This document shows, piece by piece, positions 4,986-62,057 of a DNA stretch of 64,000 bases; within the stretch, counting starts at the first letter, position 1, and each line of letters starts with the position of its first letter. The DNA is from Scenedesmus sp. PABB004 (taxonomy: Eukaryota). The notes beneath the pieces are model-generated. The model made no database searches. It saw only the letters and a program-made list of their open reading frames with translations, and had not been told where the DNA came from. A program made the translations under genes and the position numbers. Location of the stretch: assembly GCA_014905635.1 (NCBI GenBank), contig JABVCE010000025.1:124001-188000 (forward strand). Direction: 5' to 3'.

Positions 4986-7900
4986 TCACGCCGCGAGGCT
5001 GAGCAGCAGCGCGGTGCCGCGCATGACCCAGTGCTCCGGCTCCGCGCCGCCGGCGCGCAGGTCGACGGTGGCCATGTAGCTCGGGCGCTCGCGCGCGCCG
5101 CTGCGCGTGGGGTAGAGGTAGAGCGGGCAGGCGTAGTGCCCGCGCCCGGGGCGCTTGCGCGCCTCGGCCGGCTTGAAGTGCAGGATCGGCATCGGCACGA
5201 TCAGCTCCATCGGCGCCGGCTCGCACAGGCAGCCGCCCTCGTAGTCCCAGCCGCCGCCTGCGCGCGCGCGCGTGGTGGCGGAGTGAGCACGCGGGCGACG
5301 CGCAGCGGCGCGCCGGGCGCCGCGGGCCCCGCGCCGGTGGGGGCGTGGCGGCTGACACGTGCGCGGCGCCCCCCGCACCCTCGAGGAAGAGTCCCTTGAC
5401 GTACACGCCCTCCCGCGGCGGCGCCGCGATGCTGCGCTCCTCCGCGTTGACCACGCCGTGCTCAAAGCCGAGGCTGTCGATCGCCACGCCCGACCGCCGC
5501 GCCGTCGTCTGGCGAGCGCGGGCGCGCGGCGGCGGCCGCGTCGGCCAGCGCGCGTGCGCGCGCCGCGCCGCGTCGGCCCCGCAGGCGGGCTGCCACGGCC
5601 ACGCACACACGCACGCGCGCACGCACGTACGCACCTGCAGCACCGCGGTGAGGAAGCCGGTGGGGTATGTGAAGCCGCCGAGCCAGTAGATGCGCGGGTA
5701 GCCGCCATCCGCCCAGCGCGCGAGCTGGTCGAGGCGCGCGAGCAGGTCGCGCGTCCACGCGCCGAGCGGCTTGAGGCTCGGGTAGCACCGCAGCCACACG
5801 GGCGGGACCTTGCCGCCGTACAGCGCGTCAAACACCTGAGCCACACGTGTGAGGCCGCGTGCGCGCGGCGTACGCGGCGTGTGGTGCACTGGCGCCGGCG
5901 AGCGCGCCGAGCAAACGGCCAGCCCTGCCGCACGGCGCTGACCAGCCCTGCCGCACGCAAGCGGGTGGCGCCACCCCCCCCCCCCCCCCACACACACACA
6001 CATACACACACCTGGTCTAGGTCTGCGCTCATGACGACGAGGCCCTTGATGCCGCGCACGAGCTCGGCGCACCCGCGGCGCACCGCGACCAGCAGCGCGT
6101 TGTAGCGCTCGATCTGCAGCACGCCAGCAGCAGCAGCGGCAGCAGCGGCAGCAGCGGCAGCAGCGGCAGCAGCACGCGGGGTTTAGGGCCGAGCGCAGTC
6201 AGCAGGGAGCAGCCGGCGCGCACCGGTGGCCGCCCGCCGCCCGGCCGCCGCAGGGCGTGTGGCGGGGCACCGCCGTCCGGCCTTCCCTCTCGCCGCCAGC
6301 GCCGCCCCTCTCCCTGCCACCCCTCGCTCCCCTTCGCTGCGCCGCGCACCTCCTGGAAGAGCACCACGTGCAGCGCGCTCGGGTCGTCCTGCTTGGCCCG
6401 CATGACCGCCTCGAGGTTGAACGGCGCCGGCACCGTGTCCAGCAGGTCGGCCGCGATCGCCTCCACCAGCTCCTCGCGCCGCCGCCCGCCGCCGGGCGGC
6501 GCGCCGCCGGCGCCGCCCCCGCTGCCGCCGGCGCCCGTGCGCGGCGCGAGGCCCGCGAGGCCCTCCAGCAGGGCCTTGCTGTCCTCGATGAGATAGTTCA
6601 TCTCGGCGTTGGCGTGCTGCCCAAACGCCTCGGGCCTGCGCGGCGCGCGCGGGCCAGGCGCGCGGGTCGGGCGCGCGCCTGCCGCGGCCCGCGGGCGGCG
6701 CCGCGGCCCCGCGCCTGCCGCGGCCCGCCCCCGCCCCATGCCCCATGCCCCGCCGCGCCTGTCTGTCGTGGGCAGCGTCGCGATGTAGTCCCTGAAGCTC
6801 CCGAGGCTCCCCGGCTCGGGGATGAAGTACGCGGGCAGCGGGGAGAGCTTGAAGTTCACGGCCTCCAGCGCGTCCTCGCAGAAGAACCTGCGCGCGCGCA
6901 CACACGTGGCGTCAGCCGGCGGCGCAGCGCGCGGGCAGGCGGGCCGGCGCCAGCACGGCCGGCGTCGGCGGTGCCGCGCGCGGGTGCGAGCGGGGAGGGC
7001 GCGCACCGTGACATGTAGCTCGCCAGCACGCGGCGGTCGAGCTCGTCGGTGACGCGGCCGCCGTAGTTGGCCTCCGCGATGAGGTAGTGCAGCGCCGCCC
7101 AGGGCGTCGGCCCCGGCGCGGCGAGGTAGCTCTTCAGCAGGTCGTCAGACACGCTGGCGTGGGCGTGGGCAGGCAGGGGCGGCGCGGGCGGCGGCGGCGC
7201 GGGTGAGCCGGGGGGGGGGGCTGAGTTGGCGGCGGCGCGGGCGGGCGCGGGTGCGAATGATCGGAATGATCGTTCGCGGTCCGCGCGCCTGAAGTCTGTG
7301 TCGTTGAAGTCGTAGGGCACGTTGAGGCCCAGGCTCCTGAACTTGCGCCGCTCCAGCAGCACGCTGTGGTAGTACGCGAGCGCAAAGAGGAGCTTCTGGT
7401 ACTTGGCTGCGCGGCGCGGGCAGGGCGCGGGGCAGGGCGACGCCCGCGGCGGCGGCGGCGGCGGCGGCGGCTCGCGCGCGTCGGCCTGCCGGCTGCACGC
7501 GCCGTGCCGCGCGTCCGACATGCATGGCGCTGCCCCGCGCGCGGCGCGCGCGCACCGCTCGCGGCGCAGGCGGCGAAGCCCTCCTCGGTTATGCCGGCGT
7601 AGAGGCGCGTGAGGTTGGCGCGCAGGCCCTTGGGCGGCTCGGTCGTCATCTTGAGGCCGCGCTGCAGGATGGACGCGGGGAAGTCGGCGCTCGGCGCGGA
7701 GGAGAGCCAGAGGCGGAAGCGCTCGTGCGGCGCGCCGGCCTCGAGGCCCTCGATCAGCTTCTCCAGCGACGGCAGCCAGGAGGTCATGAGGTGGCAGTTG
7801 GCCAAGAAAACCCAGTGCCCCGCGCGCGCGCCCTCCTCCACCAGGCGCTGCGCGGTCGGCGCCTGCGGTCAGGAGCGGTCGCGGTGTCGGGCGGCGCGGG

Positions 7901-10900
7901 GCGCGCGCAGGAGGGGCGGGCGGGGCGGGCGAGGCGGGCGGGTGAGGGCGCCGCACCCCGCGCGGCGGCGCGCCGCGCGTGCTGTGCCGCCGCGCCGCCG
8001 CGCGCGCGACGCGCCTGGCCCTGGCCAAGCGCGACGGTGTGCAGGCGGCCCGCCATGTCGCGCTCGGCCGCGAGCTTGCGCAGCGGCTCGGTCGGGTCGA
8101 CGCCGGGGGAGAGCACGAAGATGAGCGGCGTGGACGGGCTGGAGGCGGCGAGCGCGTCGCCGAGGTCGAGCAGCGGCGGCTCGACGAAGCGCCGGCCGAG
8201 CGCGTTGGCGACGAACGTCGTCGCCGCAAACACGACGCGGTCGGGGCGCAGGCTGCGCAGCAGGAGGAGGCGCTGCAGCTCGTTGAGCTTGGCCTCCCAC
8301 TCGCGCGGCAGCTCGGCGGCCTCGGGCTCGGGCGCCCGGAACCAGGCCTCCCAGTCGGCCCCCGCGGCGTCGAGGCTGCCCGCGAGGCCCTTGAACGCGG
8401 GCAGCGCGTCCAGGTTCGCCAGGTTGTCCCACGCCGCCTCGCTCACCCAGCCGGGGCAGGGGTTGGGCGGCAGCGCCGAGCGGTCGAGCACCTGCGCCGG
8501 CGGCGCGCATGCGGCCGCCGCTGGGTGCCTCGGCCGCCGCCGCCGCTGCCGCTGCTGTCGCCGCGGCCGCCGCGCACCTGGCTGCCGCGCAGGAAGAAGG
8601 CCCACTCCTCCGCGTTGACCTGCCCCGCCGCCGCGAGCACGCGCACGCACATCTGCAGGCTGAGCAGCAGCTTGTGGCGCTCAAACAGCGCGCGCGCGGC
8701 GTAGGCGTAGACGGCGTAGGTGTGGTGCTCGTTCAGCGCCTTGATGCGCTCGGGCAGGCCCTCCGGCCGCGGGCTGGCCTTGATGCTGAGCGCAAAGAGG
8801 CCCGCGTAGGCGTCGAGGCTGAACTGATACATCGGGTCGACGCCTGACGCGCGGCGTGCGGCGCGGCAGGCGAGCGGGCGGCGCGGCGAGTGTGCGTGGC
8901 GCACGGCGCTGCGGCGCGGCAGCGGCGGCGCGCGGTGCGGCAGGGCGGCAGTCAGCGTGGGCGCACCTGCGAGGTCGTTGAGCACGAAGAACAGCACCGC
9001 CGCGCGCACGCTGCAGGGGCGGTACGCCGCCGCGGCCGCCTCGATCTGCCGCGCCGTGTCCTCCGCGACGCGCAGGCTCTCGATCACCTGCGGCGCGCGA
9101 TGCGCGGTGTCAGCGCCCTGGCCCCAAGCCGCCGCCGCGCGTCTGCAGCCCAGCGGCGGCAGCGGCGGCAGGGAGCGCGCACCTCCTCCCAGGTCGTCTT
9201 GGACGCGTCGAGCGTGTCGATGAGCTCCACGTTGTCCAGCAGCGACCCGCTCGCGTTGGCCAGGAGCTGCAGGATGGTGTCCTCCAGCTCCAGCTGCGTG
9301 CGCTTGCCCGCCGCGACCTGGGCGCCGCGCACGTGCGCGCGCACCGGGCATGAGCGCGGCGCCCCGCGGATGCCGCTCGCGCCCGCGCCCTCGCACGCTC
9401 CTGCGCACGCGCCCGCCCGCCGCCGCACCTTGACCACGAGCTCGCCCTTCTCGCGGTCCAGGTCGGGGCGCTCCGCCTTGACGACCGCCGCGAGCAGCTG
9501 CGCCTCGAGCCCGCTCTCCTTGACCGCAAAGCTGACCACCATCGCGCGCGTGGACACCTCGGGCGCGTAGTGCGGGTTGGCGAGCTTGGTCGACAGGTAG
9601 AGCTTGAACCCGGGCGCCACCTCGGCCTCCTTGTCGCCCAGCTTGACCACCAGCGACGCGCCGCGCCTGCGCGTGCGCGCCGGGCGCGGGAGTGGGGCGC
9701 GCGCGCGCGCGCTGCGCCCGGCGGCGCGCGCGCGCGCGCGGCGGCGGCCCCCTCGCGCGGCGCCGGCGCACCGCACGAAGGCCTTGGCCAGCAGGGGGTC
9801 GAGCACCGGGTCGATCTCCTCGCCCACGCCCGCGAGCAGCACGGGGCGGCCATGCGCGAGCGCGGCCTCGAGCTGGCGCAGCAGGTCGGGCGCCGTCGGG
9901 CTGAGCACGCGCAGCCCTGCGCCCGCCTCCATGCTGCGGATCCAGCGTACCGCCTGGCCCTGAGGGACAGGCCGGCGGCGCCGAGCCGGCCACGGCGGCA
10001 GCGGCGGCGGCGGCGCGCTCAGCGGGCGTGCTGCGCGGCGGCGGCAGCCGCGCCACACGCGCGTGCAATGCGCGGGCGCGCGCGTGCGCGCGTGCGGGCC
10101 GCGCCTGTGGGTCGATCATGAGCGGCCAGCGCCGGCCGCGCGTGACCATGACGCCGTTCTCGGTGCTGAACGCGTCGGCGGGCAGGCCCTGGATGTTCCA
10201 GTCGCGCACGCTCGAGGGGTCGGCCAGGAAGCCGCAGAAGTCAAAGCCCTCGCTGCAGGGGATGCCCAGTGCCTTGACCTGCGCCGCGGGCGGTCAGCGG
10301 CGGACGCATGCGCGCGTGCGCGTGTGTGCGTGCGCGCCGCAGCCGGCCCCGGCCCCACCTGCCCCATCCAGGTGCCCCTGACCAGCTCGTCCCGGAACTC
10401 GCTGGGGAAGGGCCCCGCGTAGCTCAGGAACGCCGCGGCCAGCAGCGCGTCGCCCGGCAGCGCGGCCAGGAACTGCTCGTAGCCCGCGATCGACCCCTGC
10501 CAGCGCACGCGCTCGCCCGCCAGCCCTGCGCCGCGGCGGCGCGCGCGGGCGGGCGTCGGCGCGGTGGCGAGATGATGCTGCGCGGCGTGCGCGCGCGCGC
10601 CGGCACCGCGCCGGGCTGTCAGGCAGCCAGCGAGCTGCGCCGCACCCGTGACGAGTTTCTCCGCGCGCAGCAGCTTGCCCTCCAGGTCGGTGAGCTCCGC
10701 CTCCAGCACCGTCTTGCGCGCGGTGCTCTCCTCGTACCTGCGCCCAGCGCGTGCTCAGCGCAGCGCAGCGCAGTGCAGCGCGCCGCCGCCCCACCAGCCG
10801 GCGTGGCCCGCGCGCGCGCGCGCCCGCCCGCCCCACCTGTCGCGCAGCGCCTTGACCTTGGCCAGCACCGCCGCGAGCGCCTCCTGCGCCGCCGCGAGCG

Positions 10901-13900
10901 CGGCCTGCTTGCGCGCGAGGTTGTCCTGCGCGGCCCGCAGCCGCGCGCGCTTGGGCCCGACGTCCTTCGCGACGCGGCCGTAGACCTCCATTGCCCGCAC
11001 CCACATGCACAGCCCCCGCGCCGCGAGCGAGACCTTGCCCACGGCGTCGGGCGAGAACTCGGGCGCCGCCGTGAGCTTGGCCAGCTTCTTGAGCAGGGCC
11101 TCGTCAAGGCCGTCCTTGTCGAAGTTGAGCAGGCGCGACATGAAGCTCGCGTCCCCGAGCGCCTTCTTGGCCTCCTCCCACGACGGCGGGCGCTTGAGCA
11201 CCGTCATCACGCCCGACAGCGTCAGCTCCACCAGCGCGGGCGGCTTGGAGTAGGCCTGCGCGGAGGCGGTGGCACGGCGGGGGAGCCGTCGGTGCGGGCA
11301 GCAGCTGGCAGCGCAGCCCGCCACACGCAGGGCTTGGAGCTGAGCACTCAGCACTCCGGCCACCTCAGGCCAAAACTCGGCCAAAACTCAGGCCAACTCA
11401 GTCCCCTCAGCGCACCTTGAGCTCGCTGATGTCCTTCTTGGTGAGCACGTTGAGCGCCGCCTCGGCCTCCTCCAGCGCGGGCAGCGCCTTGTCGAGCTCC
11501 GCCGAGACCTGCTGCGCGATCGCGTTGGCCTCCTCCGTCTCCTTGGCAATCTTGGTGGCCTCCGCGTTGACCTGGGCGGGCGCGCAGCGGGCGGCGAGGG
11601 GACGGCGTGTCCGCGCGTGCCGTGCGACGCGCCGGGCGGCGGGCGCGCGGGGCCCCCGCCGCCGCCGGCCTGCCGGGCCCCCGTCGCGCCTGCTTCTCCT
11701 GCTCGTCCGCGACGCGCTTGTCCTGCACGATCTCCACCAGCAGCTCCTCGCAGTCGGCCTTCGCCTGCGTCACCACGACCTGCTTGCCCTGCACCACCAC
11801 CTTCATCTCAGTCACCTGCGCGCGCGTCTCGTCGAGCTTGGCCAGCCCGCCGGTGAGCTTGCCGGACTTGGCCAGCAGCTTCGCGCGCTTCTCCGCCAGC
11901 AGCGCCCTGCGCGGCGGGGACCGCGGCCGCTGTGTCTTCGCGCGCGCGCACGTGCGCGGCGGGCCGCGGCGCGCGCCGCCCTGGCCTCTCTCTGTGGCAT
12001 CGCCGCCCCCGCCCGCCGCGCCTGTAGTTGCGCACGGTCTCCAGGTAGTTGGTGGGCGTGACGTAGTTGCGCCGCCGCAGGCTCGCCCACAGCGCGCGCG
12101 ATGTGCTCTCCACGCTCTGGTGCGCCGTCACAAACATCTGCGTGCGCCGAGCGCGCATGTGAAGAGGGGGCGGAGCTCCGCGCAAGCCCCCGAGGAGCGC
12201 CAGCCCCGCGGGCGCGTAGCCCCGCCCGCACCTTGGCGACCGCTGCCTTGACCTCGTCGCTGCCGAGGCTCTCGCCGGCCATCTGGCGCGTCGCAACCTC
12301 GCACAGCGCGTCGGCGGGCCACTCGCAGAACCAGTCGATCGTCGTCGCGTTGACGAGCCCCGGGAACATGCGCACGCGCTCGCGGAAGGCCTCGCCGACG
12401 GGGCTCAGGCAGAGCACGACGTGCAGGTTGGCCCTGCGCACGCGCGCGCGCGCGCACGGCGGTCAGCGGCAGCGCGGCCCGCGTGCGCCGCGCGCCGCGC
12501 GCCCCGCCTCGCAACCACCCACGCCGCCGCGGCGCACCGCACGCGCTCCAGGAGGAAGGCGGCGAGGTCGTCGGGCGTCTCGCCGGCGCCCGCGGCCTTG
12601 GCGGCGGGGCGCAGCTCGTCGAGCAGCGCGGGCAGCTCGTCGCGGGGGATGAGGTTGGGCACCTCGCCGCTGGTGAGCAGGTTGTTCACGTCCTCCAGGA
12701 ACGCCTCGCACTTGATCTGTGGCGGGGGCAGCGATCGGACGCCAGCGCGCGGGCGCGCGCTGGTGATGCAGCGCGGCGGCCGGCGCGCGGCCGCCGCTGG
12801 CTGCGCGTGCGCGCGCGGCGGCGCGCCTGCGACTCGTCAAAGAGGAAGACGGTGGGCCTGCCCGCGACGCCGGCCTGGCGGACGAGCGCCTTGAGGTCCT
12901 CCCTGAACTCGGCGACCCGGTAGGTCTTGGTTATCTCGAGGCAGAACACGCGCAGCCCCGCGACGTACGCCGCGAGCCGCGCGAGCGACTTGCGCCCGCT
13001 GCCGCCGACGCCCACGAGCAGCGCGTGCCCGCGCGGCTGCGACAGGACGCGGTGGATGCGGCACACGTGGTGCAGCGCGTCCCTGCGGCCCCCAGGTGGC
13101 GGCGGCGGCGGCGGCGGCGGCGGGTCGGCCCTGGGCCCTGGGCCAGCGCAGCCGTCCTTCGCAGCACCCTCAGCGTGCTGGCGCCGCCCCGCCGTGCTGC
13201 CCTCCCTCCCCGCGCCGCACGACGCGCCTGAAGAGCACCAGGTCGAGCGGCGCCGCGCCCGGCTCGAGGCCGTAGTCCTCCAGCTTCTCCGCCAGCACGT
13301 CCTTCAGCGCGGCCATGTCGCGCACCGGCTCGTACGGCGGCGGGTCCATGCCCGGCCGCAGGAAGTTGACGTACGGCGGCACCTGCAGACGCACGCGGCC
13401 GCGCAACGCGGCGTTACGACGGGGGCCGCCTCGGGGCGCCACGCCGCGCGCACTGTGCGGCAGCACGGCGCCGCCCCGCGTGCACGCGCCTGCTCGCCAA
13501 ACTCCTCAAACAGCGCGGCGAGGCTGGTGCCAAACGTCGCGCCCAGGCGCTCGTCGAGCGCGCGGCGCAGCCACGCGACGTCGGCGGCGTCCCACATGCG
13601 GTCGCCGATGCAGCGCATCGCCTCGTGCACCCAGAGCTGCAGCAGGTCCTCCTTGTTATTGCAGAAGGCCTTGCTCACCTGCGATGCGAGCAACACGGCG
13701 GCGGCGGCAGGGCGGCGTCAAGGCCCTCTTCCGCCGCGCGGCCGCGCGCGCGGCCGCGTCCGGCTGCGCCGCCGCGGCGCGGCGCGCGCCTGCATGACGC
13801 CGAGCACGATCTTGGCGAGGTCGCGTGTATTGAAGAGGTAGTGGCTCTTGGCGGGCGTGGGCAGCAGCTCGCGCGACACGGCGCGGTACAGCTCCACGCT

Positions 13901-16900
13901 CGCGGCCACGAGCGGCTCGGCGAGCGGGCGCACGTCATCGTCAAAGTCGGACAGCCGCCCCGACAGCAGCGTGGCAAAGATGCGGCGCAGCGCGCCGTCG
14001 TTGGGCTGCGTCGCGTTGACGGTGCTGAAGACCGCGGCGATTCGGCCGCTGAACGCGCCGCGCCCGCCGCCGGGCGGCGCCATCGCGGCGAGGAGCTGCA
14101 TGTCGCGCACGTGCTTCACCTCGCACCGCGCGCGGTCGTACCTGGCGGGTCGCGGCGCGCGCGGCGGCGCAGTGTGCAGGGTTGAGGTGAGTCGGTGTGC
14201 GCGCGCGCGGGCCAAGGGAGGCGGCGGCTGTTGGTCCAGGGAGCAGCCAGCCGCGACAGCGCACCAAAAGCCGTTGTCGGCCCAGAGCCTGAGCAGCTCG
14301 AGCGGCGGCATGAAGCCGTACTGGGTCTTGGCGGGCATGTTGAGGTCGTCGATGAACGCGACCAGCCGCCGCCCGCCCGCGGGGACGTACACGCCCTTGG
14401 TGCGCTTCTCCAGCTTGCCCTCGAGCGTGTCCTGCGCGCGGCGCGCGGGGCAGGGCCGTTCGGCGCGCGCCGCGCGGCGCGCACCGCGCGCGCAGGGCGC
14501 GACCGAGGCTGCAGCCCGCACGGTCCGGCGCGCAGCGCCGCCCGCCGGCCCGCGCGCCTGCAGCGAGTTGGACGTGGTCTGCGCGCTGAAGTTGATGGTG
14601 CAGTGCGCGCGGTCGGGCGGCAGCGCCTCCAGCAGCGACGTCAGCGTCATGGTCTTGCCCACGCCGACGCCGCCGACGAGCAGCGCGTGCACGCCGGCGC
14701 GCACGAGCGCGCCGACCACAAACGTGTTGCGCGTGGTGTCGACGGTCGGCACCAGCAGGCGGTGCGGCTGGACGTCGGGGCGCGGCTTGAAGCTGCCCGA
14801 CAGCCGCGACTCCCAGCTCTGCCACGACCGGTTCTTGGCGTCCACGCAGTACTCGAACACGGTCTCGGCGCCCGGGTAGCGCGTGTCCATGTCCCTGCGC
14901 GCGGCGCGCGGGCGGCGGGCGGCAGCGCGGCGCAGCGTGGCGCAGCGTGGCGGGCCGGGCTGGGCGGGGGGACGGCGCGGCGGCAGCCAGCGCCGGCGCC
15001 CAGCACGCGCGTCGAGCGCGGGCTGCCGGCGCAGCACGCACGGCACGCGCCCCGCGCACCGCATGAAGGCGTCGAACCGCTTGCGCCCCTCCTCGTCGAG
15101 GCTGCCGCCGAGGCCCCATATGAGGGCGAAGAGGAACCACTGCTCCACGCTCGCCGCGAGCGCGTCGGGGCCGTCGTCGAGGTTGACGCCGTTGTCGCGC
15201 GTCGCGAGCGCGTCAAAGAGACGCGTGAACGTGCGCACGCAGCTCAGGCGGTCCGTCGGCACCAGCTCCCGGCAGTGCAGGCGCTTGTGCTCCAGCGCCG
15301 CGTCCATGTAGCGCTCGATGTGCCGCGCCAGCAGCGCGGCGACCTGCTGCTGCAGCGCGGCCGCGCCGGGCGCGTCGGCGCCGTCGGCGCCGGGCGCAGC
15401 CGCCTTGGCGGCCAGCCAGCTGTTGACAAAGGGCCGCCAGCCGAGGTCCTCGACATTGAGGTAGATCATGCCCGCGCGGCTGACTGTTGCGGGCGAAGCC
15501 TGGCTCAGGTCCTCGACCTCAAACAGCAGCGACACCTGCGCCGGCATCGCGATGCGCTCGCCTGCGGCGCGGCGCACGGGCGGCGGCGCGGTGCGGCGTC
15601 GAGCCGGCGGCGCGGCGCGGGGCTGGGCGGCGCGGTTGGGCGCGGCAGGGCCTGGCGCCGCGTGCGCACCCGAGAGCAGCGTGAGCAGCTTGTTGTCGTC
15701 GAGCGTGGTGTTCATGCTCTCAATCCACAGCGTGTCGACGGGGCCTGAGGCCGGCAGGCGCGGCGCGGCGCGGCGGGCGTGCGGGTTTGAGGCGGCGCCC
15801 GCGCGCGGCGCCACGGCGTGCCGCGTTCACGGTGGACGCAGGCCCCGGGCGCCGAGCCCCACCCCACGGCGGCGCACCGTCAAAGAGGATCCACTTTTGG
15901 TCGGGCGACTCGTCGCGGCACGCGGCGCGCATCGTGCGCGCGAGCACGCCGTCGCGCCACTCGTGCGTGGCCGCGTCGAAGCTGCCGTACAGCTCCTCGT
16001 TGCTCAGCGCGAGCGGGTTGATGGTGTGCACGCTCACGCGCTGAAAGCGGTCGTCGCCGGGGTGCGCCGCCGCGAGGCGGCCGAGCGTGCGCGCGAGGCA
16101 GCGCCACGCCGCGCTTTTGCCCGCGCCGGTGCGGCCGACGATCATGTTGCCGTGCCGCGCGACCTTGCAGTCGAAGATCTGCACCACCTTGGACACAAAC
16201 TCGGGCACCGCCTGCGCGGGAGGGGGGAGAGACAAGGCGTGAGCAAACACGAGCAGCTCGGCGGCGGGGCGTGGGCGCGGGCAGGCGGGCTGCCAGCGCG
16301 CGCGCCGCCGCGCCCCCGCCCGCTCGCCTGCAGGCCCGCGTCGGCGAGGTCGGCCTCGATCGCGGGACGCAGCGCGCCGCCGGCCTCGGGCGGCGGCTCG
16401 AGCCCGGGGAAGAGGTCGGCAAGGAGGGCCATGAAGAGCGGGACGTCCAGGAAGACGAGCTTGGGCCGGATGAGGCCAAGCATGGTCCGGTACAGCACGC
16501 CCTCCTCGCTGCCGTCGGGGTCGGCGCGCCGCAGCGCGCCCGCCGCGCGCGCGATCGGGATGATGAACGACCTGCATGGGAAGGGGGGGGGGGGGAGGGG
16601 CGGCGCCGGCAGCGTCGGCGGGGCCCAGGCGCGCCGCGCGCCTCCCTCCCTCCCAGCGCCGCGCCGCGCCGCGCCCGCGCGCCGCTGCGTCCGCGTCCGC
16701 CGCACCGCAGGCCGTAGTCGTAGTGGTCGCACTTGCTGAGCTGCTGCTGGCTCAGCGCCATGATCGACGTCATCTTGCGCGCGAGGCCGCGCGCGCCGGC
16801 AAAGCCCTCGCTGAACATCATGATCTCAGCGATGAGCGTGAAGTCGGGGGCCATCATGCTCACCGGGCGCAGCAGGGCCTTGAGGTTGTCGGGCAGCTCG

Positions 16901-19900
16901 CTGCGGCCTGCGCGCGGCACCGCACCGCGCGCGGCGGGCGGGCGGCGGCGGCAGCGCGTGGGCGGCGGCGCGGCGGTGCGCGCGGCGGCGCGGCGGCGGC
17001 GCGGCTGGCCGACAGGCGCACCCGCGTAGCCGGGGTTCATGGTCACAAAGATGCCGCAGCTGGGGTTGAGCCGCATCTCGCTGCCCAGGAACACGAAGCG
17101 GCTGCGCTCCTCCTTGATCGCCTGCGCGCCGGCGGCACGCGAGCGAGCACGGTCAGCCAGCACCGAGGCGCGCCGCGGCCGCCGCCGCGCTCCCGCGCGT
17201 CCGGCTGCAGCAGTGCGCGGCTGCGCACGCCCCGCCCCGCGCTGCGCGTCGCGGCCGCGGTCAGCGTGGTGTGGGGCCGCACCGTCATGACGGTCGCGAT
17301 CTGCGTGGCCACCACGCTGAGCACCTCCACCTCGATGCGGTTGAACTCGTCCAGGCACGCCCACGCGCCTGGCGGCGGCAGCGGGCACGGGTCGGCGCGC
17401 GCGGCGCAACGCAGAAGCCAGCGCACAGCGCGCACAGCGCGCTGAGCTGCACTGACGCGTGCCGCGCGGCCGACTGCACGCCGCGCACGCCGCGCACCCG
17501 ACTGCGCGAGCCCCGCAAACATGCGGCCGGTCATCTTGAAGTCCACGCCGTCGCTGCAGTTGAACACGATGACGTAGCGCGCGAGCGCCTTGCCAAAGTC
17601 CTTGACCGTCTCCGTCTTGCCCGTGCCCGCGGGGCCGAGCGGGTTGCCGCCGCGCCGCGTGAACATCGCGGCCCCGAGCGTCATGTAGCACCTGGCGGCG
17701 CGCGGCGCGGCGCGGCGAGGGCGTCGGGGCGGCGGGGGCGGGGCGGCGGCGCTGGCGGCCGGCCCAGACTGGGGCGGCGCGTCGGGGCGGGGCGGCGCGG
17801 CGCGCGCGCGGCGGCGCACCGGTCGGTGAGGGGCGTGATGACGAGGCGGCCGTTGTTGCCCTGGTACTCGTAGCCGTACCTGAACACGCTCAGCACCTGG
17901 CGGCCGGCAGGGCAGGGCCGCGGGGCGGGCAGCGCGCGCGACCGGGAGCCTGCTCAGCTGCCGGTCACGGCTGTAGACCCCCCGGCCGGCGGGGTCACGG
18001 CGTGCGCGCTGCGTGCCGCGTGCCGTGCCTGCTTGACGACGCAGTCGTCGGCCTCGCGGTCCCAGTAGAAGCGCAGCTGGCCCGCCCAGTCAAAGTCGGC
18101 CGCGCTCGCGGCACCGGCCTTGATGAGCTTGTCGATCACGTCCCGCGCGTGCACCTCCACGGTGATGAGCGCGACGACCTGTGCGGCACGCGAGCGCGGG
18201 AGCGCGCCGGCTCAGCAGCGGCGCCGGCGCCCCGCGCGGCCGCCCCCGCCCGCCCGCCCGCCCGCCGTGCTGGCAGACGCGCGGCGCGTGCCTTGTTGCG
18301 CTCGATCGTGCTCAGCTGGGCGCGCGTGATCGCGGTGAGCTTGGCCAGGTAGCCGACCCACTTCTTCTTGAGCAGCCGCAGCGCCTTGCGCGCGCCCTCG
18401 GGCTCGCCCAGCGCGCGCTCGACCTCGGCCGTCCAGAGGACCTGCCCCGCGGTGATGACCATCTGCCCCGGGTTGTCCTTGACCCACCTCTCCTTCTTGG
18501 CGCCTGCCCGGGCAGGCGCGGCGACGCGGGCGGCTCAGCGCGGCGGCGGCGACGCGCGCGGCGCGCGAGCCGTCAGAGCTGCGCGCGCGCGGGCGCCTTC
18601 CCGCCTCCCTGCCGCGCGGCGCACGCACCCTTGCTCTCCTCCAGCACGCGGAGCAGCTGGCGCTTGGTCGCCGCAAACATCGCCTCCTCCACGCGGTTCA
18701 GCCACTCCTCGGGCCGGCCCTCCGTCACGACCGGCGCCGGCAGCGGCAGGTACTCGCCGTCGGGGCTCCATATGCCCACGCTCTCGCACGTCCGCCGCCC
18801 GTCGACGCCCACGGGCAGCATCTCAAGGCGCTTCACGCCTGCGCGGCGGGTCGGCGCGCGGCGGGCGGCGGTGACCAGCCGGCGGCGGCGGCGGGGCTGC
18901 AGGGCTTGGGACGCCTGCGCGCGCGACCGGTCGACCGGTCGACCGCGGGCGCGCGCACCCTCGAAGCACTTCTTGAGGTGGGGCTGCACGTTCTGGGGGT
19001 CGCGCGCCTGGCCCAGGATCTCCAGCAGGTCGTCGCTGGACAAAAAGTAGAAGCTGCGCGCGTCGCCAAGGAGAGGCGGGCAGGGTCAGGCAGTCGCGCG
19101 GCCTCGCTGGGCAGGGCCAGGCCGGGCGGGGGTCGAGTGTCAGCGCGCGTGCGCGTGCGCGGGGGCGCACCGCGGGAACTGCTGGCGCTTTGACTCCAGG
19201 TAGTGGTCGAGGCTCTTCTGCACGCGTTCGAGCTTGGCGTCCATGTCCTGCGCGGCAGCCGGGCGGCGCGCGCGCGCGCGCGCGGTCAGCGCGCCGCGCC
19301 GCGCCGCCGCCGCTGACAGCGGAGCCCGCCCGCGGGGCCTCAGGCGCGGCGGGAGCGCCCCCGCGCGCCTGGAACGCTGCGAGCACGCCAGGCGCGGTCG
19401 TCGCGGCGGCGACGTTGCCGGTCGCGCCGAGGCGCGCCATGGCCGCGGTGAAGGCGCCGTGCACGGCCTCAAACATCGCGCTCTCGCGCGGCAGCTGCTT
19501 GCGGATGTCCTCGCTGCCGACAAAGATGTTCTCCAGGTACATCCAGCTGCGCTGCACCTGCGCGCCGAGAGCGGCGAGCGCAGCGAGCGCAGCGGCGAGC
19601 GACGGCGGCGCGTGAGCGGCCGGCCGGCGCGCGAGGGGATCGCCGCGGCGCGGGCTGCGCGGCGGCGCGCCCGCGGCGCAGCCGGAACGGCACGCGCGGC
19701 GCGACGTGACAGCGGACCGACCTGGAGGACCATCTCGACGGTCTCCGACACGAGCGCGAGCGTCGCCTCCCAGCGCGCGACGGCGGGGGCAAAGACCAGG
19801 AAGTGCGTGCTGCCCTTCATCGCGCCGAGGCTGACCGACGCGTCCTCGAGCGCAGCAAAGACGTCCTCCGCGCTGCGCAGCCGCAGCGCGCCCTTGTACT

Positions 19901-27401: not shown

Positions 27402-27449
<48 letters not shown>

Positions 27450-30878: not shown

Positions 30879-30978
30879 CGCGCGAGCGCCGGCCGCGCGG
30901 CGCGGCGCAGCCAGCAGGCGCTGGCGGCGGCGGCGCGTGCGCGTTGGGGCGCCGGGTGGCGCAGATGCCCTTTGTGTC

Positions 30979-32312: not shown

Positions 32313-32353
<41 letters not shown>

Positions 32354-45318: not shown

Positions 45319-45349
<31 letters not shown>

Positions 45350-45499
45350 CGCTCGCGCGCGACGGCCAGGTGGAGGCGATCAGCACGATGCTGGAGGCGC
45401 TGGAGCGGGAGCACGAGCACCTCTACCAGAGCCTGCTGCGCCCCATCACCGCCTTTGTCTGCGACATGCTGCCGGTGAGCCCCGCCGGCGGCGCGGCGC

Positions 45500-45534
<35 letters not shown>

Positions 45535-51470: not shown

Positions 51471-51517
<47 letters not shown>

Positions 51518-54703: not shown

Positions 54704-55504
54704 GCGCGCGGCGCGGCACGCCGGCGCGGCGCGTCGGCGCGGCGGGCGGCGGCGGGCGGGGCGGGCGCTGGGGCGGCGGCGGGGGTAGGCAGGCGCCGCC
54801 GCGACAGGGGCGGGACGGCGCGGCAGCTTCGCCCCCGGTTTCGGCCGTTCTTTCTCTGCCTGTCCCTCCTCTGTCTCGTCCCTCGGTTCGCCGTCAGTTT
54901 TGGTGCAAGGCCCGCCCCGCGCAGACGGCAGGGCGGGTGTCGAGGAGGAGGAGGGGTCGGGGCGCGGCCCGGCGCGCCGCGCACAGTGCGCGGCGCGCTG
55001 GCGGCCCAGCGCAGCGGCCGGCGGTGGTGTGCAGGCCTGTGCAGACACAGCGAGGAGGAGGCAGAAAATAAAGCTATGCAATCGCGGTTGGGCGCGCAGC
55101 AGCTTGAACGGTTTGCGTGTGCGGGCGGCGGAGCGGCAGCGGAGCGCAGCGCAGCGCGCGGCGCGCGAGCGGCGGCAGCAGTCGGTGTGGCACGCGCCTC
55201 GCGTGAGGCGCACGCCGGCGGCGGTGCATGGAAACCGGTTCAGGCCATCTGTCCGCGCGACGCGGCCGCGCGCCGACGTCGACGGCCGGCACCGCGCTTC
55301 AGCGCGCCCAGACCGCCGGCCGCGCGCGCCGAGCCCCGCGCGCGTGCCGCTGGCGCCGCAGTCTCGCAGTCCGCCCGGGCTTCCCGCGCCGCACCGCACC
55401 GCGCCGGTCGCGGCATCGGCGAGGCCCATCGGCAGCGCGCCGGCTCACAACCGCCGGTCGCGAGCAGCGGGCTGCGCCGCGGCGGCGGCCGCAGCCGGGG
55501 CGCC

Positions 55505-56089
55505 ATGCGGCCGCGGCGCCTGGCGCTGCTGCTTGTCGCGGCGGCGTGCGCCTGCAGCGGCGCGCGCGGCGCCGGGGCGGGGCGGCAGCTGGCGGACCAC
55601 ATCACGCACGTCTACGAGCCCGGCGAGGTCGTCACGCTGTACGCCAACAAAGTGGGCCCCTACCACAACCCCAGGTGCAGAGACACGGCCCGCTGCGGGC
55701 AGCCGGCGCGGCCCGCGCGCGCGCGGCGGCCGCCGCAACCGCCGCTGCGCTGCCGCCGTAGCGAGACGTACCAGTACTACACGCTGCCCTTCTGCCTGCC
55801 CAAGGATGGCAAGCAGTACGTGACGGAGGACCTGGGCGAGGTCCTGGAGGGCGACCGGCTCGTGAACACGCCGTACGAGATAAAGTTCCGCACCGACGTG
55901 GAGGCCGCGGTGCTGTGCACCAAGACGCTCGGCGCGGAGGAGCTGCGCAAGTTCCGCGCCGCCGTGGCGCAGGACTACTACTTCCAGGCGCGCCGCCCGC
56001 CGCGGCCAGCACGGCAGCACAGCAGCGCGGCGGTGGCGCTGCGAGCCGGCTCGGGCGCACGCGGCGACGCTGCCGCCGCCCAGCAGTGT

Positions 56090-56123
<34 letters not shown>

Positions 56124-58792
56124 GGGCGCCGCAGATGTTCCTGGACGACGACCTGCCCGTGTGGGGCTTCCTGGGCAAGACCGAGCGCGCGTCGTCGACG
56201 GCCGGCGGCGCCGCGGGCGGCGGCGCGGGCGGCGGCGTGCGGACGTACCTGTTCACCCACTTTCACTTTGACATCGCGTACAACGGGCCCCACGTGATCG
56301 AGGTCAACGTCTCCACGAGCGCCGGCGACGCGGCGCGCACGCGCGACATCACCGACGCGGACTCGCTCGACGCGGCGTTCAGCTACAGCGTCAAGTGGCG
56401 CCCGACCGGCGTCGACTTTGACGACCGCATGGACCGCTACAGCCGCAACTCCTTCCTGCCGCAGCACCTCGAGGTCGGCGCGCCGCGCGCGGGCATGGCC
56501 GGGCCGGGCCCGGCCCTGCCGCCGCGCGGGGCGGGCGGCGCCGCGCGCCGCCCCTCGCCGGCCGCCCACTCGCCACGCACGCCGCGCACGCGCGCGCCGC
56601 CGCCACCGCCCCCCTGCCTCCCCCCTTAATCTCTTGATCAGATCCACTGGTTCTCCATCATCAACAGCTGCGTGACGGTGCTGCTGCTGACCGGCTTCCT
56701 GACCACCATCCTGCTGCGCGTGCTGAAGAACGACTTCCTCAAGTACAACACCCGCGACGACGAGGCGGGCGAGGCGGAGGACGAGACGGGCTGGAAGTAC
56801 CTACACGGCGACGTCTTCAGGCGCGGCAGGGCGCGCGGGGCGTGCCAGCACGCGCCGCGCAGCGCACAGCACGCGCAGCGCACCGCACAGCAACGCGCAG
56901 CATGCGCCGCGCCGGCCCGCCGCTCATGCCGCGCCGCGCCGCGCCGCGCCGCTTGCCGCGTGCTGGGCCGCAGGTTCCCGCCGCAGGTCAACCTCTTTGC
57001 CGCGATGGTCGGCGCGGGGACGCAGATCACGGTCATCGCCGTGTCGGTGCTGGCCCTGGCCCTGGTGGGCACGTTCTACCCCTACAACCGCGGCGCGATG
57101 CTCTCCGCGTGCGTGGTGCTCTACGCGCTCACCGCGGGCGTGTCGGGTGGGTTGCGGGCGGGGCGGGGGGAGGGGCCGCCGCGCGCCGCGCGCTGTGCGC
57201 GCTGCCCGCCACGCCCCGCGCCGCGCCGCCCACGCGCTACCTCGCGCCGCCGCCGCACACCGCCACCACCACACCCACGCTCAGGCTACACGTCTGGCGT
57301 GTGGTACAAGATGATGGGCGGCCGCGCCTGGATCTCCAACGTGCTGCTCGTGTCGGTGCTCTTCTGCGGCCCCCTGCTCGCCGTGTTCAGCGTGCTCAAC
57401 ACCATCGCCTGGGTGCAGGGCTCCACGCAGGCGCGCGCCCACCGCCGCGCGCGCGCCACACCCGCACCGCGGCGCCAGCGCCGCCGCGCCGCGCTGTGTG
57501 ACCGCCGCCGCCGCCGCGCCCGCCGCCGCTGCCAGGCGCTGCCGTTTGGGACGATCGTCATCATCATCGTCATCTGGGCCCTGGTCACCTTCCCGCTCAC
57601 CGTGCTGGGCGGCATCGCCGCCAAGAACAGCGCGCACGAGTTCCAGGCGCCCTGCAGGCGCGCGCGGCCGCACGCGCGCGCGCGCGCGCGCGCGCGCGCC
57701 CTGCCCGTGCTGCGCCCTCCCGCGCGCGGGCCCTGCCCATGCGCCGCCCTCCCGCTGAGCGCGCGCGCGCGCGCGTCGCCGCTTGCAGGACGACCAAGTT
57801 CCCGCGCGAGGTGCCGCCGCTGCCGTGGTACCGCGAGGCGCCGGCGCAGATGGTCATGGCCGGCTTCCTGCCCTTCAGCGCGATCTACATCGAGCTCTAC
57901 TACATCTTCGCAAGCATATGGGGCCACAAGGCGCGGCGGCGCTGGGCGCGCTGGCCGCGCTGGGCGCGCTGGCCGCCGTCCGCGGCCGCCGCGCCCGGTC
58001 AAAAGCGCCCCGCCCGGGGCCCCGCCCCTCGGGCCTCGCCCGCTGGCTCGCGCACTCAGCTAGCTCGCTCACTCACTCGGCCCGCTCACTCACGCGCTCT
58101 CCCGCCCGCCCGCCCGCGCCCCTTCTCTCTCCCTCCTCCTGCAGCTGTACACCATCTACTCCATCCTGTGCATCGTGTTCATCATCCTCATCATAGTGAC
58201 CGCGTTCATCACCGTCGCGCTGACCTACTTCCAGCTCGCGGCAGAGGACCACCGCTGGTGGTGGCGCGCGTTCCTCTGCGGTGCGGCGCCGCCGCCGCCG
58301 GCGGCGGCAGCGCCCCTCTCGCCGCTCACCGCCGCCGTGCGCGCCCCGGCCGTGCCCACTGACACGCCCACGCCCCGCCCCGCTCGCCGCGTTCGGCGCT
58401 GCTGCTGCTGTCTCGCGCAGGCGGGTCGACCGCGCTGTTTGTGCTGGGCTACTGCATCTTCTACTACCACTACCGGTGTGTGCGCCCGCGCGCGCGCGCG
58501 AGCCCCAACCGGGCCCGGCGGCGCGGCCGCAGCAGCCCGGCGCTGCGCTCGGGCGCGCGCCGCGCGCGCGCCCCCAGCCAGCGGCGGCGGCGTGACGCAC
58601 GCCGCTGACGCGCGCCGGCGCGGCCGCCGCGGGCACCGCAGGAGCGAGATGCACGGCCTGCTGCAGACGGCCTTCTTCTTTGGCTACAACGGCATCGTCT
58701 GCTTTGCCTTCTTCCTCATGCTCGGGAGTATAGGCTGGCGCGCGAGCCTGCTGTTCGTGCGCAGCATCTACAAGGCCATCAAGTGCGAGTGA
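55505..58792 (+). CDS. Transmembrane 9 superfamily (EMP70/TM9SF) protein, 11 exons
   Basis: Signal peptide; [74 protein letters not shown], and C-terminal IYKAIKCE* (KxD/E motif). Confidence 0.96.
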
Positions 58793-58972: not shown

Positions 58973-58977
58973 TTACA
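58973..58977 (-). promoter_or_regulatory. TGTAA polyadenylation signal of the Kelch/FN3 gene
   Basis: TTACA on the + strand, about 57 nt past the stop at 59034. Confidence 0.6.
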
Positions 58978-59033
58978 GCCGCAGCGTGGCCGCGCGGGTC
59001 GCACGCGGGCACGCGGCTCGCTCGCGCCGGCCG

Positions 59034-62000
59034 TCAGCCGCGCGTGCTGTACGCGTGCGATTCGCTCCAAGCAAACGACCCGTCGTCGTAGGTCGCCTTT
59101 ACGCAGCAGATCACCTCGGTGCCAGGGCGCAGCCCGCCCACGACGCGGCTCAGCGCGCGGCCCGAGTACGCCTCGCGCGCCACGCCTGCGCGCGCGCCCG
59201 GGCGGCAGCAGCCGGGCTGGCCGCCCACGCCCCGCGAGCCTGCATGCACCGCGCGCGGCAGCGGGGGCGGGCGCGCTGCAGCGGGGGGCGGGCGCACCTC
59301 GCGAGGCGACCATGAGCTTGTACGACGTGATGCGCTCGCTATTCTTGCTCGGCGGCCGCCACGCGACCTCCACGCTGCTCGCGGTCACCGCGCGCGCGTC
59401 GGGCAGCAGCTCCAGCCGCTCCACCTGCCCCGCGGCGGCGGCGCGAGCCGACTGTGGGGCCGCCGGACCGCAGCCGAGGCTCTTGGCTCGGCGCGTGCAG
59501 CGCAGCACGCGCAGCGGCGCGCGCGCCTGCTCGTCGCGGCGCCTGCCAGCCGCGGCGAGGCGCGCAATGTCCTCCGGCAGCGTCAGCTCCGTGATCATCA
59601 CCTCGTCCAGCTGCTCGTGCACGTTGGGCAGGAGCGTGTAGAGGCGGCTGCCGTGCACCGCCGTCGCACACGAGCTCTGCGCAGCCGGGCGGCGGTCGGT
59701 GCAGCTTGCAGCACACAGCACGCGCTCCGGCCGCCCGCTCGCCGCCGCGCGCGCGCTGCGCGCCTGCTTGAGCCACACCAGGCCCTTGGCCCACTCGCCG
59801 TCGTCCAGCTGCTCCCACGCGGGACCGTCAAAGATGCTGAGCACGTGCGTGTCGGTCAGCCGCCGCCCGCCGCCGGCGCCACCGTCGCCGCCGTCGCCGC
59901 CGTCGGCCGCGCCGCTGCCGGGCGCCTGCAGCTGTGCCGCCGGCGCGGGCGCCGCGGCGCCGCAGCCGCCGCTGACCACGAGGTACTTGCCGCCAAGGAC
60001 CGCCGCGGCGTGGCCCTCGCGCGGCTCCGGCGCCACACCACTCGGCGTGACGGCGCTCCAGACCAGTCTCTCCACGTCAAGGTAGTGCACGTCGTTCTGC
60101 GGCGACCCCCACACGCGGCGGCGGGGGTTGGCGCCCGGCGGCTGCACGTGTGCACACGCACGGCGGCACAGGGCCCGCGCCGCCCCGCGCGTGCGTGCGC
60201 GTGCGTGCGCCGGCGCGTGGTCATGCCGCACCAGGTGCCGCCGGCCGTCGTGGCCGCCGACGAGGTACAGCCGGCGCCCGTCGTCGGTCGCGCACAGCGA
60301 CGCGCCCTTGCGCGGCGACGGCACGGCGCCGCTGGCGCTGTGGCAGCTGAGGTGGCTCCACACGCCGCTCTCGAGGTCCAGCGACCACACGTCGTTCAGC
60401 AGCAGCCCCGCGTAGCTCATGCCGCCGAAGACCAGGACCTGCGCGCCGCGGCCGCGGTGCTCGCGCTCGGGTGCAAGCCACCCACGCGGCCGGGCACCGC
60501 CGGCCGGCGGCGCAGCTGGTCCTGTCTCGCACCTTGTCGCGCAGCGCCGCCGCGGCGTGGCAGAGCCGCGGCGACGGCTGGCTGGGGCCGGACGAGGCGA
60601 CGGCGGTCCAGCGCACGTGCTGCGCCGCGCACGCGTCGGGCAGCACCATCGCGGCCGACGTCGCCTCGTCGCCGGTGCTGCCACCAAAGACCAGCAGCTT
60701 GCGGCCCCCGACCGCCGTCGCGGTGTGGCCGAGCAGCGGCGCCGGCTGCGTCGCGGCGGCGCCGTCCGGCTGCTCCCAGGTCAGCGTGTCCAGGCTGAGC
60801 ACCGCCGTCTCGCGCGCCACGCCCTCGTGGCTGCGCGACTGGCCGCCGTGCAGCACGAGCTGCTTGCCGCCTGCGGGCGGGCGGCGACAGGCACGGCGGC
60901 CGCCAGCGCGCAAGGCTCAGCGGGGCGGCCGCGCGCCGCCACCCAGCTGCCGCGCGGCCGCCAGTGCACACGTGTGCGCACGCACGCGCACGCCCCACCT
61001 GCCAGCGCCGCCAGGGCGTTGAACTCGCGGTCGTGCGGCACCGAGCCCTTGAGGCGGTGGCGGCTCGTCGCCACGAGCCACGGCTCGCCAAAGAGTATGC
61101 GCAGCTGCGTCGCGGCCTGGCAGCGCATGCTCAGCTCCGCGATCTCTGACCTGCGCAGCCGCGGCCGCGGGCGCGGCGGTGCTTCAGGCTGCCGTGGCGT
61201 GCCGCTGGTCAGCAGCGGTCAACAGCCGCCGCCGCTCGGGCGGCTGCCGCCCACAGTCGCGCAGCCGCGCACCGAGCCTTGTCCAGCGCCGCGTCCTTGG
61301 CGTCCAGGTGGGCCCTCGCGACGCGGAGCTCGGTGCCTCTGCTCTCGATCAGCGCGTGCTGCTCCTTCACGGCCGCCTCCAGCCGCTCCTTGTCCTGCAG
61401 CAGCCCCGCCGCGTCGTCCAGCTGCGCCGCCTGCGCGGCGTTGGCCTCCTGCAGGCGGGGCGGGGGGCGGGTCGCGCGCCGCGCCCCCGGGCGCGCGCGG
61501 CGCTCTGCCGGCCGGCGCGCGTGCGCGCGCGCCTTGAGCCGCGCGATCTCAGCGACGCCGCCCGCGAGCTCGGCCTGCAGCCGCTCGAGCTGCTGCGCCA
61601 GCGCCGCGCCGCGCGCGTCCGCCGCTCGGGCCTGCTCCTGGCGGAACGCCAGTATGTCCTGGCAGTCGTGCGTCGCCGCCGCGATGCGCGCCTTGCAGGC
61701 CGCCACGTCTGCCAGCAAGCGCTCGTTCTCCGCCTTGAGCTGCCGCGCCTTGTCCACCATCATGGCGTGCCCCAGCTCCAGGTCCTGGTTTGCGGCGGCC
61801 AGCGCCGCGAGCTCCGACGCCAGCCCGGGCCTGCGGCGGCGCCGCGCGGCGGGCGGCGTCGCGCGGCTGCCCGCCGCCGCGTGCCGCTGCGCCTGCATCA
61901 CGCGGCTGCCCGCCGCCGCGCCCCGCGTCACGCGGCTGGCCGCGTGCCGCGCCCCGCGTCGCGCGGCTGCCCCGGCGCCGCGTGCCGCCGCGCCCCGCGC

Positions 62001-62057
62001 TGCGGCGGCCGCGCACTCGGGGGCCTGCTCGGCCTTGTCCGGCTTCTTCGGCGGCAT
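59034..62057 (-). CDS. Coiled-coil plus Kelch-repeat plus C-terminal fibronectin type III protein, 10 exons
   Basis: ATG 62057 MPPKKPDK; the coiled coil splices in frame (DKAR|SEIAELSMR) to Kelch blades (LVLHGG, LLVFGG, VLVFGG, LYLVGG, LVVSGG) and FN3 (SVEVAWRPP...ITSYKL...GLRPGTE...VKA). Confidence 0.8.

Follow-up and report, generated by a model that had tools for sequence, protein, structure and literature searches.

How often does an intron of this green alga begin with GC instead of GT, and what would allow such donors to persist? The question is raised by a 64-kilobase (kb) stretch of Scenedesmus sp. PABB004 (contig JABVCE010000025.1, positions 124,001 to 188,000 of the forward strand), here called the window and numbered from its first letter. 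A preliminary description of the window, spliced by hand, had placed about 36 GC donors among about 136 introns and had read them as a sign of relaxed or altered recognition of the 5′ splice site in this lineage. Spliced alignment of four genes of the window yields a confident set of 85 introns, of which 55 begin with GT and 30 (35%) are GC-AG. The GC donors are distinguished from the GT donors by stricter flanking sequence and by phase, and the whole pattern probably reflects ordinary U2-type introns of a nuclear genome under extreme GC pressure, in which a C at the second intron position (+2) would be tolerated by compensation elsewhere in the donor.

Base composition makes such a claim easy to suspect. 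The G+C content of the window is 78%, with a range of 76–83% over all 4-kb bins, and GC is its commonest dinucleotide (13,557, or 21% of the total), with CG at 11,980, CC at 6,677, GG at 6,472 and GT at 2,397, so that GC is 5.7 times as frequent as GT. Stop-to-stop open reading frames (ORFs) of 500–1,200 codons are open in six of six frames. Because ORFs are open in every frame, splicing by hand is risky and an independent test was needed. Both features also lend some weight to the suspicion that the GC donors are artefactual, arising either from a base-call or assembly error that systematically turns T into C at +2 or from mis-placed junctions. Third-position periodicity points to short exons of ∼100–500 nucleotides (nt), introns of ∼80–250 nt and genes on alternating strands.

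GC-AG introns in four aligned genes

Introns were called with a purpose-written protein-to-genome dynamic-programming aligner (BLOSUM62, affine gaps, introns in three phases), with a minimum intron of 30 nt, a cost of 25 per intron and the acceptor fixed to AG. Twenty-seven homologues of four genes were aligned (dynein 8, TM9SF 10, PES 5, Kelch 4), taken from database searches seeded with single window ORFs and from one representative search. Each homologue was run three times: with GT or GC at equal cost, with GT only and, as a control, with all 16 dinucleotides at equal cost. An intron was regarded as confident when it was supported by two or more homologues that made up no fewer than half of those covering the site. 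Two observations made during this procedure could be taken in favor of mis-placed junctions. GC calls without the consensus, resting on one homologue only, were scattered among the dynein, PES and Kelch alignments; calls of this kind were excluded from the confident set. At three places GC and GT donors 3–6 nt apart were ambiguous (21859..21985 versus ..21982, 16572..16708 versus ..16705 and 25173..25283 versus ..25277), and these were scored as GT.

The share of GC-AG introns was 20/57 in dynein, 5/10 in TM9SF, 3/10 in PES and 2/8 in Kelch, counting majority-supported introns. Restriction to GT lowered the score in all dynein runs (from 10108 to 9603 with homologue P0005), cost 174–181 score units in each TM9SF run (2347 to 2169 with P0123) and reduced the PES score with P0241 from 4103 to 4015; in these GT-only runs the donors were shifted by 7 to 60+ nt, or the intron was read through. 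When all 16 dinucleotides were offered at equal cost, the eight dynein runs placed 339 introns, of which 185 began with GT, 112 with GC and 42 with any other dinucleotide. CG, CC and GG were rarely picked, though CG is about as frequent as GC, and CC and GG reach about half its frequency, and the choice of GC under equal cost indicates that the GC donors emerge beyond chance. The preliminary description had maintained that several of these donors have no usable GT, and indeed an in-frame GT is missing within 8 nt of all 30, and within 30 nt of 16 of them. The lengths of the GC introns modulo 3 are distributed 12/8/10. The 18 of 30 with a length not divisible by 3 have to be removed if the frame is to be kept, and in-frame stop codons appear on read-through of some GC introns.

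An ab initio parser, which combines the codon usage of the aligned exons with intron trinucleotide content and donor and acceptor weight matrices, was also applied. On its training genes it recovered 57/57 confident introns in dynein, 10/10 in TM9SF, 9/10 in PES and 8/8 in Kelch. Trained on dynein alone, it again found 10/10 in TM9SF, 9/10 in PES and 8/8 in Kelch, plus a few extra calls. Homology and ab initio calls together give a whole-window estimate of ∼35 GC donors in ∼125–140 introns, which agrees with the hand count quoted above.

The most uniform case is the TM9SF (EMP70/nonaspanin) gene on the plus strand (55490..58789; Pfam and spliced alignment), where all ten homologues gave the identical ten introns, 5 GT and 5 GC, and did so again in the all-16 control, in which three runs placed one additional upstream intron that was neither GT nor GC. 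In the following, brackets give the donor with a slash at the exon-intron boundary, then phase, length and the fraction of covering homologues in support. The five GC introns, each supported by 10/10 homologues in both modes, are 55988..56134, which splits YYFQ/MF (CAG/GCGCGC, phase 0, 147 nt), 56821..56973, which splits DVFR/FP (CAG/GCGCGG, phase 2, 153 nt), 57431..57535 (CAG/GCGCGC, phase 0, 105 nt), 57658..57788 (CAG/GCGCGC, phase 2, 131 nt) and 57931..58144, which splits IWGHK/LY (AAG/GCGCGG, phase 0, 214 nt) and has no GT within 30 nt.

The PES-like gene on the plus strand (35892..39629; Pfam, spliced alignment and P0241), with hydrolase and acyltransferase domains, provides a different kind of support. 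P0241 carries the NCBI name 'acyltransferase-like protein [Scenedesmus sp. PABB004]', and the spliced model is identical to it at 854/854 residues, with no gap and with 10 introns (7 GT, 3 GC). A public gene model made independently thus contains the three GC-AG junctions already. These are 36632..36782 (CAG/GCGAGG, phase 0, 151 nt, 3/4, P0241 included), 38283..38361 (AAG/GCGCGC, phase 0, 79 nt, 5/5) and 39048..39181 (CAG/GCGCGC, phase 0, 134 nt, 5/5). As none of the three lengths is a multiple of 3, read-through is impossible. For this gene and for TM9SF, the intron counts given in the preliminary description (3/10 and 5/10) came out the same from spliced alignment. P0241 also contains Ala/Gly/Pro-rich insertions of ∼100 and ∼190 residues between its conserved domains, and long insertions of this type are a risk throughout this genome whenever introns are called by homology.

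Of the 30 confident GC introns, 20 lie in the dynein gene on the minus strand (4989..25875), which homologue names and spliced alignment identify as an axonemal heavy chain of the inner-arm I1/f beta type. Its best-named matches are 'dynein-1-beta heavy chain, flagellar inner arm I1 complex' of Dunaliella salina and 'dynein-1, subspecies f' of Haematococcus lacustris. Single runs with the eight homologues contained 26–56 introns and 10–22 GC donors; the confident set has 37 GT and 20 GC, and the ab initio parse has 61 introns, 20 of them GC; the count by hand was 21/65. In the direction of the gene, the first GC introns are 23125..23253 (AAG/GCGCGG, phase 0, 129 nt, 3/3, with 3 also in the all-16 control), 22404..22489 (CAG/GCGAGG, phase 2, 86 nt, not a multiple of 3, 4/4) and 21311..21426 (CAG/GCGCGC, phase 2, 116 nt, 4/6). 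Next come 20409..20491 (AAG/GCGCGC, phase 0, 83 nt, 6/6), 20074..20205 (CAG/GCGCGC, phase 2, 132 nt, 7/7), 19248..19368 (CAG/GCGCGC, phase 0, 121 nt, 7/7) and 18179..18291 (AAG/GCACGC, phase 0, 113 nt, 7/7). Read-through would meet an in-frame stop at 17897..18028 (CAG/GCACGG, phase 0, 132 nt, 7/7) and again at 13679..13789 (CAG/GCGCGC, phase 0, 111 nt, 6/7); between these two lie 16212..16327 (CAG/GCGAGC, phase 0, 116 nt, 7/8) and 14432..14557 (CAG/GCGCGC, phase 0, 126 nt, 8/8). Further downstream are 13383..13489 (CAG/GCGCGT, phase 0, 107 nt, 5/7), 13083..13227 (CAG/GCGCGT, phase 2, 145 nt, 7/7), 12717..12826 (CAG/GCGCGC, phase 0, 110 nt, 7/7), 11907..12021 (CAG/GCGCGG, phase 2, 115 nt, 6/7) and 11572..11689 (CAG/GCGCGA, phase 0, 118 nt, 6/7). 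The last four are 9960..10104, which splits IDPQ/GQA (CAG/GCGCGG, phase 0, 145 nt, 5/6), 7863..8014, which splits LGQGQ/AP (CAG/GCGCGT, phase 0, 152 nt, 3/5), 7154..7288 (CAG/GCGCGC, phase 2, 135 nt, 3/5) and 6636..6758 (CAG/GCGCGG, phase 2, 123 nt, 3/5); the first, third and fourth of these have no GT within 30 nt.

The Kelch-repeat gene on the minus strand (59037..62057; Pfam and spliced alignment) is the least secure. Four orthologues of ∼600 residues give 8–9 introns, 2–3 of them GC-AG. The 3/9 of the preliminary description is found with the best orthologue, P0247 (6 GT and 3 GC); majority support leaves 8 introns, of which 2 are GC, and the third GC intron has the support of 1/4 orthologues and of the ab initio parse. 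The two probable GC-AG introns are 61449..61532 (AAG/GCGCGC, phase 0, 84 nt, 2/4 orthologues and the ab initio parse) and 59677..59763 (CAG/GCGCGC, phase 0, 87 nt, 2/4), both open in frame. A possible one is 59425..59526 (CAG/GCGCGC, 102 nt, in frame), the weakest, whose exact ends come from the single orthologue. Three GC introns are present in the ab initio parse of this gene.

A database protein of 843 residues, P0246, is identical to the window at 843/843 positions with five introns, all GT-AG. The GC candidates are open in frame, so a predictor can read through them, and in codon usage they resemble introns. When the 85 introns are read in frame their codon-usage scores have a mean of −0.90 and a maximum of −0.21, against a mean of +1.02 and a 5th percentile of −0.05 for 208 exon windows; 61449..61532 scores −0.78 and 59677..59763 scores −0.61. 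The Kelch candidates are thus probably introns, though the weakest part of the set. P0246 also seems to read through an in-frame 186-nt GT intron (61831..62016), and it has shorter introns at two places (60142..60231, not 60097..60231, and 59240..59297, not 59186..59297). From these comparisons it appears to retain three or four Kelch introns.

One further junction lies outside the four aligned genes, in the MiaB-like radical-SAM gene on the plus strand (∼27–31 kb; Pfam and homologue names). The intron 28626..28807 (CAG/GCGAGC, phase 0, 182 nt) was called by the ab initio parser; its upstream exon ends in TFGCQ, a stop codon follows on read-through, and the downstream exon, beginning with MN, matches Pfam UPF0004 positions 11–61 from its first residue. 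The 26-residue upstream exon, which is too short, has no Pfam match. With TFGCQ/MN, all six junctions that the preliminary description had singled out by their split motifs are reproduced to the nucleotide.

Sequence context and phase of the donors

Relaxed recognition of the donor, one of the two readings that had been proposed, finds no support in these sites. GC donors are stricter than GT donors. AG occupies −2/−1 in 30/30 GC donors and in 20/55 GT donors (Fisher p = 7.6e-10), and −3 of the GC donors is C in 24 and A in 6, so that every one reads MAG (M, A or C). On the intron side, 28/30 AG/GC donors have G at +3, 27/30 have C at +4 and 30/30 have G at +5. GT donors lacking AG (n = 35) have G at +3 in 35/35, C at +4 in 30/35 and G at +5 in 35/35, and for AG/GT donors (n = 20) the corresponding counts are 17/20, 12/20 and 18/20. 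Among GT donors, AG on the exon side thus goes with a laxer intron side and its lack with a strict one; AG/GC donors are strict on both. Stated as the ratio of C to T at +2, the donors preceded by AG stand at 30/20 and the remaining donors at 0/35, which suggests graded selection against C according to flank class.

The classes also differ in phase. Introns in phases 0/1/2 number 21/0/9 for GC donors and 18/20/17 for GT donors. In phase 1 the −2 nucleotide would be a third codon position, which is nearly always G or C here, and this accounts for the lack of phase-1 GC donors. In other respects the two classes are alike: median length is 122 nt for GC and 123 nt for GT introns, with no class difference, and the acceptors read GCGCAG/G in both. 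The interiors of the 85 introns are 86% G+C (A 6.9%, T 7.2%, C/T ratio 6.2). C is preferred at +4 of the donors (69/85, with G at 6/85), though introns carry G and C equally.

U12-type introns begin with /[AG]TATCCTT and carry the branch-site motif TCCTTRAY close to their 3′ end. Among the 30 GC donors none has ATCC at +3..+6, and all read GC[GA][CA]G at +1..+5. These donors, like the GC-rich introns, do not fit the minor-spliceosome type. No pyrimidine (T) tract was seen in the 85 confident introns (5258–62016), whose 3′ ends are C-rich. Nor was a clear branch-site consensus found in them: CTGAC occurs in the last 55 nt of 11/85 and CTNAY of 18/85, and branch-point choice is not obvious from this set.

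Other genes of the window

The gene map is based on Pfam matches of single ORFs and on homologue names. On the minus strand it includes the tail of a 2-hydroxyacid dehydrogenase gene (2929–3345; Pfam and homologue names), an unnamed gene delimited by the ab initio parse (31177..33162), a Nup54 gene (Pfam on ORFs) and eIF3h (Pfam and homologue names); on the plus strand are OST3/6 and, at 45247–53975, a long repeat-rich gene and a USP gene, both entries from Pfam and homologue names. Three of these genes have a GC-AG intron predicted ab initio: 34419..34550 in Nup54 (minus strand, CAG/GCGCGC, phase 2, 132 nt; the same in the GT-plus-GC and all-16 modes), 32307..32451 in the unnamed gene (minus strand, CAG/GCGCGG, phase 0, 145 nt) and 47352..47487 in the long repeat-rich gene (plus strand, CAG/GCGCGC, phase 2, 136 nt). 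The remaining genes are otherwise GT according to the parser, for example five introns in the dehydrogenase, three in eIF3h and three in OST3.

The long gene and the USP gene are densely packed with trinucleotide repeats, (GCA)n, (CGC)n and (GGC)n, and with other repeats of short period, in units of 9–36 nt; these are probably low-complexity Ala/Gln/Gly-rich coding sequence, and an A+T skew of up to 0.37 is seen at 48–52 kb. The (GCA)n/(CGC)n-rich low-complexity sequence makes 48.3–52.5 kb unreliable for the parser. Predictions there have donors without the consensus, the all-16 mode disagrees with them, and they were left uncounted.

The best protein matches for the window genes come from Sphaeropleales, and the inner-arm I1 beta dynein heavy chain encoded in the window is full-length. 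Presumably, then, a flagellate stage has been retained by the organism. Proteins identical to the window came from the searches for PES and Kelch, unlike that for TM9SF. For TM9SF, a search with one ORF gave no near-identical protein among the matches listed in the range of 262–835 residues, the best being 53% identical, and the gene, with its 5 GC-AG introns of 10, may be absent from public protein sets or wrongly modelled there.

Explanations and known systems

The reading that best accommodates these data, and which is probably correct, is that of ordinary U2-type introns under extreme GC pressure. Mutation bias and/or GC-biased gene conversion would push the T at +2 of the donor to C. In the pairing of the 5′ splice site with U1, a C at +2 loses one pair. 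The lost U:A pair would be compensated by the other positions, with the recognition threshold unchanged, and +2 C would survive only in donors whose remaining positions already fit the consensus, [C/A]AG/GCGCG, on the exon and the intron side alike. Donors without AG at −2/−1 would remain GT, and, A at −2 being nearly unavailable in phase 1, GC donors would be confined to phases 0 and 2. From the genomic sequence we infer both the T-to-C direction of the change at +2 and the splicing of RNA at the sites given above.

Several points weigh against this account. The AG acceptor was imposed in all runs, and the AG ends therefore follow by construction. The parser was trained on the same introns, or on dynein alone. 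The sample is 64 kb and about a dozen genes, and the GC share within it is uneven, at least ∼1/3 in the four aligned genes and ∼4 in ∼40 elsewhere, the latter from the parser only. The Kelch GC candidates are all in frame and open, and P0246 reads through them. Finally, MAGGCGCG is not over-represented in the window (78 copies versus 65 ± 9 expected). In the dynein gene it occurs 22 times on the sense strand, where 16 copies are GC donors and 2 are acceptors, and 8 times on the antisense strand. At chance level and present also at acceptor junctions, the motif is by itself no proof, and its use as a donor detector was rejected.

An alternative is that the 5′ end of the U1 small nuclear RNA (snRNA), or U1 variants or perhaps U6, co-evolved with the GC-rich consensus (G/GUGCGC); C at +2 would then be part of the design and no tolerated mismatch. 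The very high GC-donor share would suit such a change, and the C preferred over G at +4 (69 versus 6 of 85) would not pair with textbook U1, which hints at a lineage-specific partner. GC donors nevertheless need extra compensation, MAG in 30/30 together with GCG at +3..+5, as expected if +2 C is still a mismatch but not if U1 had a base to match it. Rfam gave 0 matches in the window at gathering thresholds, hence no U1 or U6 snRNA gene there. Altered recognition, the other reading of the preliminary description, is in such a form unlikely in our view. If true, it would be a natural case of a spliceosomal RNA co-evolving with genome composition.

Some of the in-frame open 'introns' (12/30, Kelch above all) might instead be low-complexity coding insertions, peculiar to this lineage and cut out by the aligner, but this is very unlikely. 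Long Ala/Gly-rich insertions are known in window proteins, as the PES alignment illustrates, and the Kelch candidates of 84, 87 and 102 nt are open and retained in P0246. The intron-like codon scores of the two probable Kelch introns and the full MAG/GCGCG...CAG/ consensus of the candidates argue otherwise, as does the backing of 3/5 to 10/10 homologues for the in-frame GC introns of dynein and TM9SF. Insertions are no explanation for the 18 GC introns with lengths not divisible by 3. That the GC donors are artefactual is hardly credible, since random error would be expected across GT donors, whereas the GC donors are a distinct group whose restriction in flank and phase argues against base-call error, and since the all-16 control seldom takes CG, CC or GG, no GC donor has an in-frame GT within 8 nt and P0241 uses three of the junctions.

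Compensation by flanking sequence is the point at which the present introns most resemble known ones. With the U2-type GC-AG introns of animals and plants they have in common the GC start, the AG end and compensation by stronger flanks. A stronger flanking consensus in animal and plant GC-AG introns is said to have been described by Burset et al. 2000 and by Thanaraj & Clark 2001. The differences lie in frequency, which is 15 to 100 times higher here, and in consensus, MAG/GCGCG in the window versus AG/GCAAGT in animals and plants. The 30/85 of the aligned genes is indeed far above the norm, as the preliminary description had claimed; the GC-AG shares quoted are 0.3–2% in plants and metazoans, with Cyanidioschyzon at 4% (bioRxiv 10.1101/2024.10.30.620910).

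Within the same host group, chlorophyte genomes were surveyed by Pucker & Brockington 2018, and several of them are GC-rich at 63–66% (PMC6310983). Annotated major non-canonical introns (GC-AG plus AT-AC) number 19/67,746 in Monoraphidium neglectum, 19/33,104 in Auxenochlorella protothecoides, 36/5,375 in Micromonas commoda and 496/8,831 (5.6%) in Micromonas pusilla, the highest among the rows examined (PMC6310983). The share in the window is several-fold above this highest value, and the survey counts depend on annotation pipelines that favor GT. No report of a high GC-AG share in chlorophytes was found in the literature covered, which did not extend to subscription journals; a search by the strain name PABB004 found no genome description, and no paper was found that pairs GC-AG introns with GC-biased gene conversion. 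Scanning metagenomes with one TM9SF exon turned up no relative, and a scan with an alignment returned 80 loci with matches of ∼1.7 kb per 571 residues; these are intronless genes or transcripts and offer no intron donors for comparison.

By speaking of 'this lineage', the preliminary description takes no account of published precedents among other GC-rich algae. In pelagophytes, predicted GC-AG shares are ∼14–17% in Aureococcus anophagefferens and ∼14% in Pelagomonas calceolata, against 0.32% in their low-GC relative Aureoumbra lagunensis, and the excess has been attributed to high GC (bioRxiv 10.1101/2024.10.30.620910). Pelagophytes are likewise rich in GC-AG introns at high GC content; they differ in being stramenopiles with few introns per gene and a lower, predicted share. 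In Emiliania huxleyi (65% GC), 135/241 curated junctions (56%) are GC-AG, nine GC junctions were verified by reverse transcription PCR, the shift was attributed to the GC content of the genome and ab initio gene models were found to under-call GC donors (Feldmesser et al. 2014, PMC4028052). The likeness extends to a GC-rich nuclear genome, a very high GC-donor share and the keeping of AG acceptors (PMC4028052). E. huxleyi is, however, a haptophyte, of another supergroup, with 56–60% GC donors at 65% GC versus ∼26–35% at 78% here, and its higher share at lower GC indicates that GC content alone does not set the rate. A rule of flank and phase like the present one was not seen for E. huxleyi in the available part of that paper (PMC4028052).

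GC-AG enrichment in GC-rich algae is a known phenomenon, seen here in a new lineage and with an unusually clean compensation rule. For annotation, predictors that expect GT would read through or mis-place ∼1/4 to 1/3 of all introns in a genome with every frame open. The trade-off among the three classes of donor amounts to a natural titration of the complementarity required at the 5′ splice site, and a chlorophycean green alga joins the haptophyte and pelagophyte cases of GC-AG enrichment.

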